From Alphaproteobacteria bacterium (lineage in GTDB: Bacteria; Pseudomonadota; Alphaproteobacteria; Rs-D84), in the NCBI GenBank assembly GCA_017472065.1, contig JAFURB010000017.1, positions 5,887-69,886 on the forward strand: a stretch of DNA of 64,000 nt. The letters run 5' to 3'. Made by a program: the position numbers and the translations under genes. This document shows, in pieces, positions 2,816 through 45,002 of the stretch; the stretch's first letter is position 1, and the number at the start of each line of letters is the position of its first letter. The notes beneath the pieces were generated by a model. That model saw nothing but the letters and a program-made list of their open reading frames with translations. It was not told the origin of the DNA and searched no databases.

Positions 2816-5177
2816 GATTTTTAACCACATAAAATCATATTACAATCGGCATAAACGGCTATGTAACATTGTTGGAATCATCGTTATTGTTTATATGACA
2901 ATACGCGTATTTTTTACACCACCCTTGCTATCGGGCATAGATTTTTCACACGCATACTATGATCGTAATGGCAACCTGATGCGATTAACATTATCCAGCG
3001 ATGATAAATTTAGACTATTTACCCCGATTGATAAAATCAGTCCAGACCTGATACGCGCCACTGTTTTATACGAAGATAAATACTTTTATACCCACCCAGG
3101 CATCAATCCAATATCATTAATACGGGCCACACGCAATTATGTGTCTGGCAACCCTGACACCCCGGGCGCATCCACAATCACAATGCAGGTTGCCCGACTA
3201 AAATACAATTTAGACACAAAAAATCTAAAAGAAAAACTGGTACAAATTGCCGCGGCAATTTACATTGACATGTTTTATTCCAAGGCTGAAATTATGGAGG
3301 CCTATTTGAATCTTGCCCCATATGGTGGCAATATCGAAGGGGCCGCCGCCGCATCATTAATATACTTTCAACGCCCTGTCCACGACATATCAACAATTGA
3401 ATCCATTACACTGTCAACAATTCCCCAGAATCCGCGCAAACGCGGTCTGAACACCCCGGACGGCATGGCCACAATGGCCAAGATGCGAACAAATCTTGTT
3501 GATCGCTGGGTTGCTAAATACCCAGACGACGAAAAATTAACAACATTAAACACGATGCCACTAAACATATATGGCATCCGTGATTTACCATTTGATGCGC
3601 CACATTTTATAAACCACGAAATTCGCACCCCACAAACAAGCCAATATACAGTAACCACAACATTGGACATAGAATTACAAAAACGCATGGAACGAACGAT
3701 GCGCGCACAAATAGACAACCGCAAGGCATACGGCATACATAATGCCGCCGCAATATTAGTTAACTATAAAACAATGGATGTTCTGGCACACATTGGTTCT
3801 GTTGACTATTTTGATAAATCCATATACGGTCAAAACGATGGTGTTCATGCCCGACGCAGTCCCGGTTCAACATTAAAGCCATTAATATACGCCACCGCGA
3901 TTGATATGGGTCATATACACTCTATGACATTACTAAAAGATTCCCCGATTAATTTTGGTGTATATGCCCCAGAAAATTCAGACAGTGGTTTTTATGGCCC
4001 TGTATTGGCACGTGATGCACTGACCCACTCGCGCAATATACCTGCGATACACCTGGTCCAGAAAATTGGCATAAATAATTTTTACAGAATACTAAACAAA
4101 TCGGGCGTATCTGGGTTAAAGCATCCATCACACTATGGTATATCAATCGCCCTTGGCGGGGCCGAGGTTTCAATGTTCGAACTGGCCGACATTTACGCAA
4201 CGATGGCCAACCTGGGCCACCGATATGAAATTCGCACCCACCTGAATACACCACAAAAAACAATCGACAAAATTCTGTCCCCGGAATCATTTTTCATGAC
4301 ACTGGATATGCTGGCCCGACAAGACGACACAAAAAAACACATCCCATTTACCACCGCCAAGAAAAATAATATCCGCCATTATTGGAAGACCGGCACATCA
4401 TCATCGTTCCGCGATGCATGGACCGCCGGGATATTTGGGGACTATGTATTAATCGTATGGGTTGGTAATTTTGACGGCACCCCAAACAATGCGTTCAGTG
4501 GCGCCCGCACCGCGGTCCCGATATATTTTGCACTGGCCGACACAATTGCCCAATACAATTTAGATATTGGCACCCCGGTAACAAACAACAATTTCATGCG
4601 CGATGATTTGAACATTACAACTGTTGACATGTGTGACAAGGTTGGCGGCATCGCCGGCCCACACTGTCCCAGAACAATTTCTGCATATTTCATCCCAGGT
4701 GTTTCCCCCATTGACACATCCCCAATATATCGTGCGGTTGCAATTGATAACGCCACTGGTCGTCGCGCATGCACAAACAATCCGCGCACCACCCATTACC
4801 AGGTTTACGAATTCTGGGATGCAGAATTTCTGGACATGTTTCGACGCGCCGGCATTACACGCAACACCCCACCACCATTTATGCCGGGATGCGATTTAGA
4901 TAATATCCATGATACAACAAACACCCCATACATCGTATCACCCGCCGCCGACACAAAAACCGTTATCGTATCAGACGATGACTTTGCCCCCATATCATTT
5001 ATGGCTGTGTCGCAAAACCCATCTGTAAAAATTTTCTGGTTTCTAGATGATAAAGTACTGGGAACGACAAAATCAGGCGAAACATTAATCCACAATACCC
5101 CAATCGGCACACATACCGTCCGCATATCAACCGACGACGGCACCGGCACATCATCAGATTTTACAGTAACAAAATAA
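2808..5177 (+). CDS. pbpC: penicillin-binding protein 1C (bifunctional transglycosylase/transpeptidase)
   Basis: GT51 motif RATVLYEDKYFYTHPGINP. Transpeptidase motifs STLK, SRN, KTGT. ATG at 2808 (ATGAATAA overlap with the upstream stop) preferred over the ORF-track start 2709. Confidence 0.85.
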   Translation: MNKIFNHIKSYYNRHKRLCNIVGIIVIVYMTIRVFFTPPLLSGIDFSHAYYDRNGNLMRLTLSSDDKFRLFTPIDKISPDLIRATVLYEDKYFYTHPGINPISLIRATRNYVSGNPDTPGASTITMQVARLKYNLDTKNLKEKLVQIAAAIYIDMFYSKAEIMEAYLNLAPYGGNIEGAAAASLIYFQRPVHDISTIESITLSTIPQNPRKRGLNTPDGMATMAKMRTNLVDRWVAKYPDDEKLTTLNTMPLNIYGIRDLPFDAPHFINHEIRTPQTSQYTVTTTLDIELQKRMERTMRAQIDNRKAYGIHNAAAILVNYKTMDVLAHIGSVDYFDKSIYGQNDGVHARRSPGSTLKPLIYATAIDMGHIHSMTLLKDSPINFGVYAPENSDSGFYGPVLARDALTHSRNIPAIHLVQKIGINNFYRILNKSGVSGLKHPSHYGISIALGGAEVSMFELADIYATMANLGHRYEIRTHLNTPQKTIDKILSPESFFMTLDMLARQDDTKKHIPFTTAKKNNIRHYWKTGTSSSFRDAWTAGIFGDYVLIVWVGNFDGTPNNAFSGARTAVPIYFALADTIAQYNLDIGTPVTNNNFMRDDLNITTVDMCDKVGGIAGPHCPRTISAYFIPGVSPIDTSPIYRAVAIDNATGRRACTNNPRTTHYQVYEFWDAEFLDMFRRAGITRNTPPPFMPGCDLDNIHDTTNTPYIVSPAADTKTVIVSDDDFAPISFMAVSQNPSVKIFWFLDDKVLGTTKSGETLIHNTPIGTHTVRISTDDGTGTSSDFTVTK

Positions 5178-40488: not shown

Positions 40489-40518
40489 AAAACCGGCAAT
40501 GCCGGTTATTTTTTTATT
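40487..40518. terminator. bidirectional intrinsic terminator
   Basis: A6-aaccggc-aat-gccggtt-aT7; lies between convergent genes. Confidence 0.75.
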
Positions 40519-41506
40519 TTACATACGAACAGTTACCGGTTAATTCAAATGTCCCCGTTGAATCATAAAATGTACCCGGTTTCAGATAGCATTCTGTTAT
40601 TGCCGTCGCCCCCGATGTGGCGGTTGTTCCATATGTATATGATGTAAGTTCTGAATTTAGCCATCCAAGTGTTGATGAATTTGGACAACGTGTACATGTG
40701 CTGGTACTGCCATTTGAATAATATCCGCTACTGCATTCCCATGCACAACTGTTTTCGGTGGTGTATTGGGCGCCGGTGGGCGCACTGGTGCATGCGGTAC
40801 ACCCCTCGTTATTGGCACCGGTTGCCGTACCATAATAGCCCACCCCACATGAATACCCAGTTGAAGTACACGCCGTCCTTGCATCATTCACAACATAACC
40901 ACTTTGACATGCAACAACAACACAACGCGTACCATATCCATCAACCCCCTTATAATTACTGCAATATTTAGATGTCAAATATGAAGCCTGCACCCCTGTC
41001 GAACCATTACAACCACTGGTCGCTGTACTAGAATCTTCAAGACAATAAATCTGACCATCAATTGTTGCACTAAATGTACGACATTGGTTGGTTGAACTGC
41101 ACAATTCATAAGATGAATCACCACCACCGGATGACCCACCACCGGATGACCCAGTGGTACATGTCGAATAATCCGCCGCACCACTAACACACGAACATTC
41201 ACCATTTGTCTTTGATGTATCTGGATTGTTGGAACATTTGCACGAGACACACGCACATTGATTATACAAGTAATATGTACCAGAAGAACCAGTGGCCGTA
41301 TCACTGGCTGTAGTCAGATCCGGTTGTGTTGACGGACATGTGGTACACGAACACGCATTGCCCGATACATGGGTAGACTCCTCGGAATATGCACTGCATA
41401 TTACATCCGGGAATAGGTTTTTACACGCCGTATCATGCGTGCCAGCTATCACATTGCCCGCCATAAATAAATTACACATCAAACCAAAAATTAAGATTTT
41501 TTTCAT
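40514..41506 (-). CDS. secreted cysteine-rich repeat protein (330 aa)
   Basis: Signal peptide MKKILIFGLMCNLFMAGNVIA from ATG 41506 (GGGGGAGG RBS). CTACTSAPTGAQY, CSSGYYSNGSTSTCTRCPNSS. The ORF-track N-terminal extension to 41638 is a read-through of the conserved upstream module. Confidence 0.75.
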   Translation of the reverse strand: MKKILIFGLMCNLFMAGNVIAGTHDTACKNLFPDVICSAYSEESTHVSGNACSCTTCPSTQPDLTTASDTATGSSGTYYLYNQCACVSCKCSNNPDTSKTNGECSCVSGAADYSTCTTGSSGGGSSGGGDSSYELCSSTNQCRTFSATIDGQIYCLEDSSTATSGCNGSTGVQASYLTSKYCSNYKGVDGYGTRCVVVACQSGYVVNDARTACTSTGYSCGVGYYGTATGANNEGCTACTSAPTGAQYTTENSCAWECSSGYYSNGSTSTCTRCPNSSTLGWLNSELTSYTYGTTATSGATAITECYLKPGTFYDSTGTFELTGNCSYVK

Positions 41507-41526
41507 GTTGCCTCCCCCAATTTTTT

Positions 41527-41593
41527 TAGGAAAACGGTCCTTTGGTTTCGGCATAAAATCGGGTTGACAGGTGGCTAAAAACTGGGATAAAAT
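41527..41593. promoter_or_regulatory. conserved upstream module copy 2 (reverse complement of 20349..20415, 2 mismatches seen)
   Basis: The plus strand contains TTGACA (41564..41569), an 18-nt spacer and TAAAAT (41588..41593), pointing away from the Cys-rich gene. Confidence 0.6.
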
Positions 41594-41606
41594 ACCATTG
41601 CAAGAT

Positions 41607-41636
41607 GTCGAAAACAAATCACCGTTTTTTTTCGGC
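41607..41636 (+). terminator. hairpin of module copy 2 (gtcgaaaacaaa-tcaccg-ttttttttcggc) followed by a T-tract
   Basis: Same 5' arm and loop as copy 1. The 3' arm is diverged (one G.U and one mismatch). Followed by attattttttt. Confidence 0.45.
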
Positions 41637-41728
41637 ATTATTTTTTTGCGTTTTTACAACTGTTTTCAATGCATTAACAAGAAAAAACACATTTTGCTTT
41701 TTTTTGATAAGATAAATAAAAGTTTATA

Positions 41729-42005: not shown

Positions 42006-42036
42006 AAAAAAATCCCTGCAATTGCGGGGATTTTTT
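42004..42036. terminator. bidirectional intrinsic terminator downstream of nrdG
   Basis: A8-atccctgc-aatt-gcggggat-T6. Confidence 0.7.
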
Positions 42037-42736
42037 ATTCACGCCATGTAACAGATTGAAACATAGAATTTATTTTTTCACGCATCGCACCGTCATTAAA
42101 AAACTGTTCCCGTGATGCAGAATCTGTTTTGTGTGCCGCATCTTCGAAATGTGGAATATATTTTTGAATTGCGATATCCGATACTCCACGTTCGTTTAAT
42201 ATTTCTGCAATTTTAATTAAATCTGATTTATCGATAAAACGCGGATCGCATGTGATTCGAACCTCAAAATCTTTGCCGGTTGCCAACCACACATCCAATG
42301 ATTTTATCATATTGTCATATGCAATATGTTGTCCGGTCAGGTCCGGATATTTTTCACGCATCGCTTTGAAATCCAACCCAATCCAATCAACCAAATCCGC
42401 CGCACGGCGCAATGTGTCTGGATAAAAACCATTGGTGTGCAAACCGATTTTGAATCCAATTTCCCGAACACGACGCATATATTCGATTGTTGCATCGCCC
42501 TGCATCAATGCTTCACCACCGGAAAAAACGACCGCTTCCAGTTTGCCGACACGCGATTGCAACCAATCAAACACGCGTTCGGGATCATATTCGCCATCAT
42601 GTGGGGTTAATAAATGGGGATTGGAACAATACGCACACCGCAATGGACATCCAACCAAGAACAGCACAGCCGCCAATTTCCCAGGATAATCGATTGTAGT
42701 GAAAGAAACCAATCCCCCAATTTGTACAGATTTCAT
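42035..42736 (-). CDS. nrdG: anaerobic ribonucleoside-triphosphate reductase activating protein (radical SAM)
   Basis: GCPLRCAYCSNPHL (CxxxCxxC); lies downstream of nrdD. Confidence 0.85.
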   Translation of the reverse strand: MKSVQIGGLVSFTTIDYPGKLAAVLFLVGCPLRCAYCSNPHLLTPHDGEYDPERVFDWLQSRVGKLEAVVFSGGEALMQGDATIEYMRRVREIGFKIGLHTNGFYPDTLRRAADLVDWIGLDFKAMREKYPDLTGQHIAYDNMIKSLDVWLATGKDFEVRITCDPRFIDKSDLIKIAEILNERGVSDIAIQKYIPHFEDAAHKTDSASREQFFNDGAMREKINSMFQSVTWRE

Positions 42737-42746
42737 GATCTTAAAC

Positions 42747-42926
42747 TTACGCCGCTTTCTTTAACAGTTCAGCATGTCTGCAACCCGTGGTCAAGCAGTT
42801 TGATTCAGTAAATGTTTTACGTTCACAGAATTCAGAATATTTGCCAATATTAAAGTTTGATACAGGGCGAATAAAACCCATTGATCTTGAAAATACTTCG
42901 CAACGTGTTCTTTGGCAGTCTGTCAT
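42747..42926 (-). CDS. stand-alone glycyl-radical peptide of class III RNR (59 aa), not in the ORF track
   Basis: My translation: MTDCQRTRCEVFSRSMGFIRPVSNFNIGKYSEFCERKTFTESNCLTTGCRHAELLKKAA. It matches the NrdD C-terminal glycyl-radical region (compare EVYSRVVGY..PV..WN.GK..EF..R). GGGAGGA RBS. 10 nt upstream of nrdG. Confidence 0.7.
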   Translation of the reverse strand: MTDCQRTRCEVFSRSMGFIRPVSNFNIGKYSEFCERKTFTESNCLTTGCRHAELLKKAA

Positions 42927-42977
42927 AGTGTGTTCCTCCCTTTCTTTTTTTGCTGACTGTTTAATTGTTGTTTATTC

Positions 42978-45002
42978 TTATGCCTGATTTGCGCCGTTTT
43001 CTGCGTCACATTTCGGACAGAATTCATGTTTCCCCGGTAAATATCCGTGCTTTGGACAAATTGAAAATGTTGGTGTTAATGTCATATACGGCACCTTGTA
43101 ATTTTCAAATATCGTACGGACAATTTTCTGGGCGGCATCACCACTGGATACCGGTTCACCCATATACAGGTGCAACATCGTTCCACCAGTATATTTACGT
43201 TGTAACTCTTCCTGGTGTTCCAGGGCGACAAATGGGTCGTCGGTAAAGTTCACAGGTAACTGGGTTGAATTTGTGTAATATGGTGCGTCATGTGTTCCCG
43301 CCGTGATAATATCTGGGAAATTTTTGACGTCTGTTTTTGCGAATCGATATGAACATCCTTCGGCTGGGGTTGCTTCCAGATTATACAAGTTTCCGGTCTG
43401 TTCCTGGAAATTCGCCAGGTTTTCACGGATGAAATCCATAACATCCAGAACCAATTTTTTACCGAATACCGTTGCAATATTTTCTGCACCGTTTGTAAAG
43501 TTCAATACCATTTCATTTGCGCCATTAACACCGATGGTTGAAAAGTGATGATTCCAATCCCCCAGATAACGGCGTGTAAATGGATACAAACCACGTTCCA
43601 TATTTTTGGTGATAATCTTGCGCTTGATTTCCAGACTGTCGCGGCCCAAATCCAGTAACCGTTTCAGTTCACGGAACAATCCGTCACGGTCACCCTTGTG
43701 TATATATCCCAGGCGCGCCAAGTTAATTGTTACAACACCGATTGATCCCGTCTTTTCTGCCGAACCAAACAGTCCACCACCACGCTTTAACAATTCGCGT
43801 ACATCCAAACGCAAACGACAGCACATTGAACGAACATCGGTCGGATTCAAATCAGAATTCAAGAAATTCTGGAAATTTGGAATTCCATATTTTGCCGCTA
43901 ATTCAAACAACGGCTTTACATTTGGATGATTCCATGGGAAATCCGGTGTAATATTATATGTTGGAATTGGGAATGTAAATGGACGCCCCAATGCATCACC
44001 TTCGGTCATGACTTCGATGAACGCCTTGTTAATCATGTCCATTTCCGCCTGTAAATCGCCGTATGTGAAATCAACCTGTTTGCGGCCAATAAATGGACGC
44101 TGTTCGCGCAAATCGGTTGGGCATGTCCAATCAAATGTGAAATTGATAAATGGTGTCTGGGTTCCCCAACGACATGGCACACCACAATTGAACACCAATG
44201 TCTGCATTGCGTTTTTAACATCTGCATATGATAAATTATCAACACGAACATACGGTGCCAGGTATGTATCAACCGATGAAAATGCCTGGGCGCCTGCAAA
44301 TTCGTTCTGCAATGTCCCCAAGAAATTTACCATATGTGAAATCGCGGTTGCCATATGCTTGGCCGGTTCACAATGTAGGTATCCTGGGACACCGTTAAAT
44401 CCTTCGTACAATAATTCACGCAATGACCAACCTGCACAATATCCGGTCAACCATCCTAAATCATGCACATGAATTGCAGCATTTTTGTGCGCCTCTGCCA
44501 CGGCACGTGGATACAGATTCAACCAATATTCCGCCGTCACGCGTTCAGATGTACGCAAAATTAAACCACCAATCGAGTAACCAACATTTGCATTTTCTTT
44601 GATACGCCAATTTGAACCACCAACATAGCCTTCGATAATATCAACGGCATCAACCATCGATTCGCGAATTTCCGTGCGTTTCTGGCGATAAATAATATAT
44701 GATTCGGCTGTCTTATATGCGCCATTATCCATCAGTGTTTTGATAACCGTATCCTGGATTGATTCAACCGATGGTGTGCGCTGTGCATATTCTTCGCCCA
44801 GTGTATCCAGCACTGATTGTGTCATAGATACTATTTGTTCATGGCTTAATTCCGTTGTGACATCAACCGCGCGTTTAATTGCACTATAAATCTTTAGCGC
44901 ATTAAAGGGCACTGTTTCGCCACCGCGTTTCTGCACGGCAACCAATTTAGTTGTAAAACTTGGTGTGATTTCAATTTTTGTTTCAATCTGTGTTTCTGAC
45001 AT
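42978..45002 (-). CDS. nrdD: anaerobic ribonucleoside-triphosphate reductase large polypeptide, ends before the glycyl-radical motif
   Basis: ATP-cone VQKRGGETVPFNALKI; class III RNR body. C-terminus ends at the Zn motif ICPKHGYLPGKHEFCPKCD. Confidence 0.9.
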   Translation of the reverse strand: MSETQIETKIEITPSFTTKLVAVQKRGGETVPFNALKIYSAIKRAVDVTTELSHEQIVSMTQSVLDTLGEEYAQRTPSVESIQDTVIKTLMDNGAYKTAESYIIYRQKRTEIRESMVDAVDIIEGYVGGSNWRIKENANVGYSIGGLILRTSERVTAEYWLNLYPRAVAEAHKNAAIHVHDLGWLTGYCAGWSLRELLYEGFNGVPGYLHCEPAKHMATAISHMVNFLGTLQNEFAGAQAFSSVDTYLAPYVRVDNLSYADVKNAMQTLVFNCGVPCRWGTQTPFINFTFDWTCPTDLREQRPFIGRKQVDFTYGDLQAEMDMINKAFIEVMTEGDALGRPFTFPIPTYNITPDFPWNHPNVKPLFELAAKYGIPNFQNFLNSDLNPTDVRSMCCRLRLDVRELLKRGGGLFGSAEKTGSIGVVTINLARLGYIHKGDRDGLFRELKRLLDLGRDSLEIKRKIITKNMERGLYPFTRRYLGDWNHHFSTIGVNGANEMVLNFTNGAENIATVFGKKLVLDVMDFIRENLANFQEQTGNLYNLEATPAEGCSYRFAKTDVKNFPDIITAGTHDAPYYTNSTQLPVNFTDDPFVALEHQEELQRKYTGGTMLHLYMGEPVSSGDAAQKIVRTIFENYKVPYMTLTPTFSICPKHGYLPGKHEFCPKCDAENGANQA

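Follow-up and report, generated by a model that had tools for sequence, protein, structure and literature searches.

Introduction

Class III (anaerobic) ribonucleotide reductases are known from phage T4, E. coli, Thermotoga maritima and Prevotella copri as a single-chain NrdD served by the activase NrdG. In the P. copri enzyme the C-terminal domain leads from the zinc site into a buried glycine loop and then into a tail that lies over the protein surface (PMC11226230). We analyzed a 64,000-nucleotide (nt) stretch of DNA from an Alphaproteobacteria bacterium of the gut (Rs-D84; assembly GCA_017472065.1, contig JAFURB010000017.1), hereafter the window, in which the minus strand carries, in this order, nrdD, an open reading frame (ORF) of 59 amino acids (aa) and nrdG. 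The nrdD gene stops short of the glycyl-radical segment, and the small ORF encodes that segment. We put at roughly 85% the probability that these genes specify a working two-polypeptide class III reductase, with the radical glycine on a subunit, some 60 residues long, that would be translated separately and supplied in trans.

Reductase genes in pieces have been reported before. Class II NrdJa/NrdJb is split in Pseudomonas aeruginosa and Thermus phage phiYS40, and class I NrdA in Aeromonas phage Aeh1 (PMC9669993; PMC3653736). The nrdD gene occupies more than one ORF in several phages, namely T4, where an intron is present, Lactococcus phage 949 and Aeromonas phage phiAS4 (PMC3653736). According to a 2026 review, spare-part proteins are known only for formate lyases, with other enzymes posed as an open question (PMC13450708); a 2021 paper on YfiD limited spare parts likewise (PMC8683613). 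A stand-alone NrdD radical subunit was undescribed in the open-access papers and preprints searched; subscription journals lay mostly outside that search, and a prior mention is possible. The two-polypeptide class III variant is apparently both large and undescribed.

Results

The NrdD profiles are divided between two adjacent ORFs

The initial annotation of the window, made from the letters alone, had proposed that nrdD ends after its zinc ribbon without a radical segment and that the missing segment lies on the 59-aa ORF; alignment of both ORFs to TIGR02487 and PF13597 had been suggested as a check. The large ORF aligned to positions 1-530 of the 562 positions of Pfam NRDD (PF13597; 561.7 bits) and to positions 4-650 of the 684 of NCBIfam NF006126 (1021 bits, cut-off 548), and it scored 463 bits against TIGR02487 (cut-off 326). 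The small ORF matched NRDD only at positions 526-562 (E-value 1.6e-5) and NF006126 only at positions 647-682. The two ORFs therefore share the NrdD profiles between them with neither gap nor overlap, and both proposals held. The large ORF has no glycyl-radical segment: its product ends, at NF006126 position 650 of 684 and without an RxxG[FY] motif, in ...ICPKHGYLPGKHEFCPKCDAENGANQA followed directly by the stop codon.

The motifs expected of an active enzyme are all retained across the two ORFs. In an alignment holding both split and fused forms (A1), C394, C395 and R396 of the large subunit are invariant and match the CCRL of T. maritima NrdD. C649, H652, C662 and C665 are predicted to form a four-ligand C-terminal zinc ribbon with its metal site; of these, C649 and C662 never vary and C665 hardly does, and the split point falls 9 residues beyond the ribbon. 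The radical motif of the small ORF reads RSMG17F, and its R14 and G17 (R687 and G690 when the chains are numbered as one) are invariant in the same alignment. After ...ERKTF the small ORF continues with a tail of 19-20 residues, TESNCLTTGCRHAELLKKAA (42747-42806), a conserved extra that lies outside the NrdD profile. Among the Pfam and NCBIfam models, neither PF01228 nor the GrcA models matched the small ORF at E-values up to 1, and NrdD models alone did so; a search against the sequences of solved structures gave no match even at an E-value of 10.

The nrdG product scored 185.8 bits against TIGR02495 (NrdG2; cut-off 131), also matched PF04055 and PF13353, and contains the CxxxCxxC motif, so that a cognate radical-SAM activase of the kind expected for a class III reductase adjoins the small ORF. 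The 10-nt gap first described between them agrees with the coordinates. No terminator-like site was found between nrdD, the small ORF and nrdG, and a promoter and terminator scan of the operon returned nothing above chance; an Rfam search of the region matched no family. The three genes very probably form one operon for a class III reductase and its activase, as judged from the sequence.

The in-frame stops TAA GAA TAA between nrdD and the small ORF were confirmed, and the GGGAGGA Shine-Dalgarno site is present, 7 rather than 8 nt ahead of the ATG. The small ORF had been described as unannotated; homologues are annotated in some NCBI records.

The split is conserved among related loci and under selection

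A survey of orthologous loci for the same split had been suggested. We scanned one genome per species and recovered 80 related loci, as stretches of up to 10 kb with NrdD identities of 59-97%. These came mostly from Candidatus Enterousia and other gut Alphaproteobacteria, in independent assemblies that many laboratories made from many animals. Among the 77 loci with a detectable radical motif, all but one (76/77) have an nrdD that ends past the zinc ribbon, with the radical motif on a second ORF of 56-65 aa behind it. A GGAGG-type site stands 5' of the small ORF in nearly all of these 76 split loci. The spacer between the two genes runs from 22 to 59 nt and varies in both length and sequence. 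Relative to nrdD, the small ORF occupies frame 0 in 27 loci, frame +1 in 25 and frame +2 in 24. Since relatives use all three frames about equally, the frame shared in the window, correctly reported at the outset, is due to chance and carries no meaning.

Pooled Nei-Gojobori estimates gave a ratio of nonsynonymous to synonymous substitution (dN/dS) of 0.12 for the small ORF overall. By region the ratio was 0.056 for the core (C9-F39), 0.10 for the tail and 0.8 for the short N-terminus, with synonymous sites close to saturation (proportion that differ, 0.64-0.70). These ratios indicate that the small ORF is under strong purifying selection. The initial annotation had considered a pseudogene less likely, and this selection, together with the ribosome-binding sites of the relatives, bears that out; its argument from two stop codons is void, as the two stops are not conserved. 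Because Candidatus Enterousia genomes are smaller than 1 Mb and fermentative only (PMC12306168), the retained trio of nrdD, small gene and nrdG is unlikely to be junk, which implies a need for the enzyme.

Past the CPxCD.E motif, the large-subunit tails vary freely among the related loci. Where the large-subunit tail holds at least 2 cysteines, the small-subunit tail holds none in 17 of 18 loci, which are not independent of one another, and in 24 of the 76 loci neither tail holds any. A cysteine pair as a universal need on one tail or the other was considered and rejected on account of those 24 loci. Cysteine-rich ends occur in particular groups: the nrdD products of one Enterousia subgroup (L044-L065) carry CxCxC on the large-subunit tail, and small subunits of Thermodesulfobacteria, Sutterellaceae and phages carry CGC, CPC, CC or CCC C-terminally (P0337, P0356, P0395, P0506). 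Such ends, which are not universal, bring to mind the redox-active cysteine pair at the C-terminus of class I and II reductases.

The best homologues of the small ORF are stand-alone proteins

The small ORF has at least 255 homologues, of which the best 120 are without exception stand-alone proteins, 57-90 aa long. Searches started from other small ORFs gave 512 and 1863 matches, the best 120 of each being 48-99 aa long. The databases label these proteins 'hypothetical protein' or, for one length (57 aa), 'anaerobic ribonucleoside-triphosphate reductase', in either case uninterpreted. Their sources include Thermosulfurimonas marina, Thermodesulfobacterium sp. TA1, Thermodesulfatator, Caldimicrobium and Candidatus Hydrothermota, as well as Parasutterella excrementihominis, P. 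muris, Turicimonas muris and a Pacearchaeota-labelled contig. On this last, a 5-kb contig labelled Candidatus Pacearchaeota (L090), a 71-aa radical ORF (1711-1926) has small unannotated ORFs and the gene of an AAA_25 protein around it, and the contig is without nrdD.

The small subunits extend further past the glycine (medians of 42 and 36 residues in two groups) than the fused enzymes do (28). In other lineages an N-terminal extension of about 30 residues takes the place of the extra tail. The tail is not confined to split forms, since a fused relative whose NrdD is 49% identical (P0144) ends in ...RKLLLKKAA, much like the ...AELLKKAA at the C-terminus in the window (42747-42773). The C-terminal Ala-Ala of the small ORF is conserved; a likeness to protease-recognition tags is speculation.

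The split form occurs in distant lineages

We searched the large ORF against 1.84 billion cluster representatives and classified the best 150 (50%-identity clusters, 42-66% identical to the window). Their C-termini were classified by projecting BLAST segments, with labels checked by eye; hmmalign caught only one exon-like piece of each intein-bearing NrdD. About 81 of the 150 stop 0-45 residues past the zinc ribbon without a radical motif. About 62 have the fused form, and 7 were left unassigned. A neighbour-joining distance tree, too crude for its 28 state changes to be trusted, placed the window in an almost wholly split clade with the signature CPxCD.E past the ribbon. A few fused members, such as one from a Geobacter-labelled genome (L077), are nested within that clade of the same crude tree.

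Seven distant split lineages were examined for the second gene, and five of them have a small NRDD-type ORF next to nrdD or in its vicinity. In L085 and L086 it lies downstream of nrdD, in L083 an intein-bearing nrdD is followed by a 67-aa ORF with a 4-nt overlap, and L084 is a 103-kb phage-like contig. The small gene need not adjoin nrdD, because in a phage-like contig with MazG and DnaB neighbours (L081, 2501-6523) the order is nrdD, DUF7487, nrdG and then a 61-aa radical ORF, so that two genes stand in between.

Cultured bacteria have the same arrangement. In the complete genome of T. marina a 1600-aa nrdD with inteins is followed by a 56-aa ORF, with a 14-nt overlap, and by nrdG. In T. muris a 676-aa NrdD, which ends in CPKCDAELIAKK... 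and is 58% identical to that of the window, precedes a 57-aa ORF and nrdG. The split is spread across many lineages, among gut bacteria, thermophiles and phages.

Inteins are heavy in this NrdD subfamily (P0121-P0270), with products of up to 1879 aa and up to five separate matching stretches. In some fused relatives a thioredoxin- or glutaredoxin-like C-terminal extension with CPNC or CPKC follows the radical segment (P0130, P0133, P0142, P0157, P0184, P0191, P0202 and P0216); P0236 and P0268 carry CxxxCxxC past the segment and appear to be NrdD-NrdG fusions.

Phage and prophage copies of the small subunit

A profile search matched at least 496 stretches among the viral contigs of IMG/VR, and we examined the best 80 loci with flanks of 10 kb on each side (1.08 Mb in total, several contigs being covered end to end). 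In 77 of these 80 the match is a small ORF. Within 10 kb, nrdD was found at one of the 80 loci and nrdG at none. IMG/VR was far richer than the GenBank phages, where tblastn with the small ORF gave two weak matches.

On a 46-kb viral contig (L109) a 57-aa ORF (3974-4147) follows genes for a holin, an endolysin, a spanin-like protein and DUF1643 and precedes tRNA-Leu and a tyrosine integrase. A near-identical protein labelled P. excrementihominis has the same context and is, in integrated copies, the last phage gene before the host genes. The complete genome of T. muris YL45 (CP015403.2) holds, besides the chromosomal small ORF (L252:6001-6174), a prophage copy of 62 aa (A4V04_00380; L254:6001-6189) that follows holin and lysozyme genes and is 72% identical to the chromosomal small subunit. 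A second group of phage copies, with a core 76-79% identical to that of the window, lies among tail-fibre genes (for example L095:3962-4195).

These copies, borne by temperate gut phages, suggest that the small subunit is exchangeable. They could be explained otherwise, by an nrdD elsewhere on the contig or by a phage protein that acts as an inhibitor. An origin as remnants of phage integration into nrdD was rejected for L109, where tRNA-Leu lies beside the integrase and the phage encloses the small ORF.

A structural model of the two chains

The radical domain of P. copri NrdD is very mobile: in the deoxyadenosine triphosphate (dATP) state it disappears from the maps while the core stays folded (PMC11226230). 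Because this domain can become disordered without the core unfolding, a cut between the zinc ribbon and the glycine loop is structurally plausible. We ran AlphaFold2 on an artificial concatenation of both chains with a 71-row alignment of the window and database sequences, fused homologues included. The model had a mean predicted local distance difference test score (pLDDT) of 91 and a predicted template modelling score (pTM) of 0.85. The radical core (residues 681-715 of the concatenated chain) scored 92-96, the junction (residues 671-680) scored 65, and in the extra tail, a predicted helix at residues 41-58 of the small subunit, the score fell from 86 to 54. When no alignment was supplied, the pLDDT was 34 and the model was of no use. 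The best structural matches of the model are all class III reductases, and the closest solved relatives of NrdD are likewise class III reductases (8p23, 4coi and 1h78; P. copri, T. maritima, S. thermophilus and phage T4). As modelled, the two chains are compatible with the NrdD fold.

Features of the locus

Table 1. Positions of the reductase genes, their predicted functional elements and the ORF past nrdG in the window.
Feature	Position	Strand	Description
nrdD, large subunit	42978..45002	-	674 aa; ATP-cone, ten-stranded barrel and zinc ribbon; without glycyl-radical segment
ATP-cone, allosteric activity site	44670..44936	-	NrdD residues 23-111; PF03477, E-value 1.6e-19; aligns to the cone of P. 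copri NrdD
Finger loop Cys394-Cys395	43818..43823	-	motif SMCCRL (residues 392-397); predicted thiyl-radical site
Zinc ribbon C649-x2-H652 ... C662-x2-C665	43008..43058	-	read from the sequence; complete inside the large subunit
Spacer between nrdD and small ORF	42927..42977	-	51 nt; second in-frame stop and Shine-Dalgarno GGGAGGA
Shine-Dalgarno GGGAGGA	42934..42940	-	7 nt upstream of the small-ORF ATG
Small radical subunit ORF	42747..42926	-	59 aa; 8-residue N-terminus, glycyl-radical core C9-F39, conserved 20-residue tail
Codon of Gly17	42876..42878	-	predicted radical glycine; R14 and G17 invariant in 12 diverse small subunits
nrdG, activase	42035..42736	-	233 aa; radical SAM, cluster motif CPLRCAYC; starts 10 nt past the small ORF
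ORF past nrdG	40514-41638	-	374 aa; rich in Cys, Ser, Thr and Gly, with an N-terminal hydrophobic stretch; looks like a secreted or surface repeat protein

Discussion

A probable two-polypeptide reductase and how it might work

The initial annotation had called the locus an evolved two-polypeptide reductase, and the split in 76 of 77 loci, the purifying selection, the invariant R14 and G17 and the distant lineages, cultured bacteria among them, argue for that view. Since the partner NrdD has no radical segment of its own, the small protein is predicted to be an obligate subunit and not a spare part. The comparison with GrcA/YfiD drawn at the start is apt for the way of working; it does not extend to membership, given that NrdD models alone match the small ORF and that its partner lacks its own radical segment.

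In the mechanism that we propose, the small subunit would be translated from its own ribosome-binding site and would supply the Gly17 loop and the stretch running back over the top of the barrel, which in ordinary NrdD are joined covalently to the rest. With the small subunit either free or docked, NrdG would abstract a hydrogen from its Gly17, and the glycine loop would enter the barrel beside Cys394/395 and transfer the radical in the manner of fused enzymes. The extra conserved tail, or the N-terminal extension elsewhere, may stand in for the lost covalent tether.

Oxygen destroys glycyl-radical enzymes by cleaving the backbone at the radical glycine. With a detachable radical subunit of 59 residues, the damaged part could be renewed without remaking an enzyme of 674 residues. 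A separate radical part would also be exchangeable, which phages might exploit by bringing their own copies. That the split serves renewal or exchange of the oxygen-sensitive part is conceivable, by analogy, and we hold it tentatively. A wider proposal is equally speculative: the small protein could be a mobile, exchangeable radical cofactor subunit and the first spare-part-like system beyond pyruvate formate-lyase, in which temperate phages of Sutterellaceae and Enterousia-like hosts plug their own versions into the host large subunit and so keep up or boost the supply of deoxynucleoside triphosphates (dNTPs), the cysteine-rich ends perhaps acting as a redox relay.

Alternative explanations

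The split may be real and functional yet selectively neutral: a stop and a start could have arisen in a tolerant surface linker, perhaps after insertion of a mobile element, leaving two mutually dependent pieces with no gain in repair or exchange. We consider this a possibility of some standing, short of an even chance. The junction is the sole low-confidence and poorly conserved stretch, and the large-subunit tails beyond CPxCD.E differ freely; the subfamily is full of inteins, and in one phage-like contig other genes separate the small ORF from nrdD. In the crude tree, split forms have fused ones nested among them, and the class I and class II splits on record are not considered adaptive (PMC3653736; PMC9669993). 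Harder to square with neutrality are the wide and long-lived occurrence of the arrangement in gut bacteria, thermophiles and phages, the longer small-subunit tails (medians of 36-42 residues past the glycine against 28), and the phages that repeatedly bear the small gene alone, which is difficult to explain if that gene is useless by itself; under neutrality the phage copies would need another cause. Several points weigh against our own interpretation. A neutral split, once fixed, would show equal conservation, and the idea of a renewable part draws its whole case from analogy and the phage copies. In two of the seven distant lineages (L087 and L088), where NrdD ends past the zinc ribbon, no radical ORF lies within 3 kb on either side, and the small downstream ORFs there are without the motif. 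The structural model speaks for compatibility of fold and is no proof of assembly, because it was built on an artificial fusion with fused homologues in the alignment.

A small stand-alone radical segment near an activase does resemble YfiD, and orphan phage copies exist, so the small ORF might be a GrcA/YfiD-type spare for a complete fused NrdD elsewhere in the genome, with the large ORF degenerate. This is very unlikely, as judged from loci of up to 10 kb: the neighbouring large ORF, which is intact, exceeds the NrdD cut-offs by far, keeps all catalytic residues and stops exactly where the small ORF starts in the profile, and genomes of Enterousia, below 1 Mb, offer little room for a dead 2-kb gene in 76 loci. 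The chance that a single chain is still made, by stop readthrough, frameshifting, ribosomal bypass or protein splicing, appears slighter again. What speaks for it is that the two ORFs of the window share a frame, 17 codons apart; in relatives, however, the small ORFs fall equally in each frame behind spacers that differ in length and sequence, some overlap nrdD by 4-14 nt and others are parted from it by intervening genes. Each small ORF brings a start and a Shine-Dalgarno site of its own, the region matches no Rfam family, and with 9 residues past the zinc ribbon and 8 before the core there is no space for the halves of a split intein. A sequencing or assembly error, or a recent pseudogene, has the bare presence of stop codons in its favour and nothing more. 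We regard it as negligible, given that dozens of assemblies, made independently by different laboratories from different animals, show the same architecture, as do complete genomes of cultured bacteria, and that a dN/dS of 0.06-0.12 indicates purifying selection.

Significance

If the two-polypeptide reading is right, the annotation of nrdD would change, and tiny 'hypothetical' ORFs beside seemingly truncated nrdD genes would be essential subunits and not debris. The open question of a replaceable radical part beyond pyruvate formate-lyase would become directly testable, and the locus would offer a natural system for studying how an activase recognizes and loads a radical loop outside its barrel. 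The phage copies would point to a new kind of auxiliary gene, by which phages in the gut act on the nucleotide supply of their hosts. The split form is present in cultured, tractable bacteria of gut and vent.

Comparison with known systems

By profile and fold the reductase belongs to the same family as the canonical single-chain enzymes, with which it shares the ATP-cone, the barrel, the cysteine finger loop, the zinc ribbon, the RxxG[FY] motif and an adjacent radical-SAM activase. It is unlike them in that the radical loop and the C-terminal stretch are a separate gene product. The cut bisects, between zinc ribbon and glycine loop, what structural papers treat as a single 'glycyl radical domain' (PMC11226230), and the small subunit has about 14 more residues past the glycine than fused NrdD.

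GrcA/YfiD of E. coli and Y06I of phage T4 are likewise small stand-alone radical-loop proteins, presumably loaded by the activase of the parent enzyme and inserted into its barrel. Both that system and the NrdD small subunit have a phage-encoded version, and the phage-borne small ORFs resemble Y06I, with which T4 supplies a radical domain to the host pyruvate formate-lyase. The T. muris prophage copy and the orphan viral copies might fit a GrcA-like role of replacement. Unlike GrcA/YfiD, the small ORF belongs to another sequence family, is about half the size of YfiD and has a partner without a radical segment of its own.

In NrdJa/NrdJb and the Aeh1 NrdA the catalytic chain likewise comes from two adjacent ORFs that jointly cover the full profile, a likeness by analogy only. 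Those cases differ in class, are split away from the radical-bearing element and are each confined to a single lineage; to our knowledge no phage-borne orphan piece exists for either. The nrdD genes fragmented in phages show introns, inteins or unexplained breaks in single genomes, without a conserved radical subunit that has its own translation signals, unlike the gene described here.

In class I enzymes the radical is made and stored on a separate small subunit, beta, and delivered to the catalytic subunit, alpha, as we propose for this system. The C-terminus of E. coli class I beta also folds over the active site (PMC11226230). Class I beta is a ferritin-like metalloprotein unrelated to the 59-residue peptide, and the distance from the radical to the thiyl cysteine, about 35 angstroms in class I, would be a few angstroms here.

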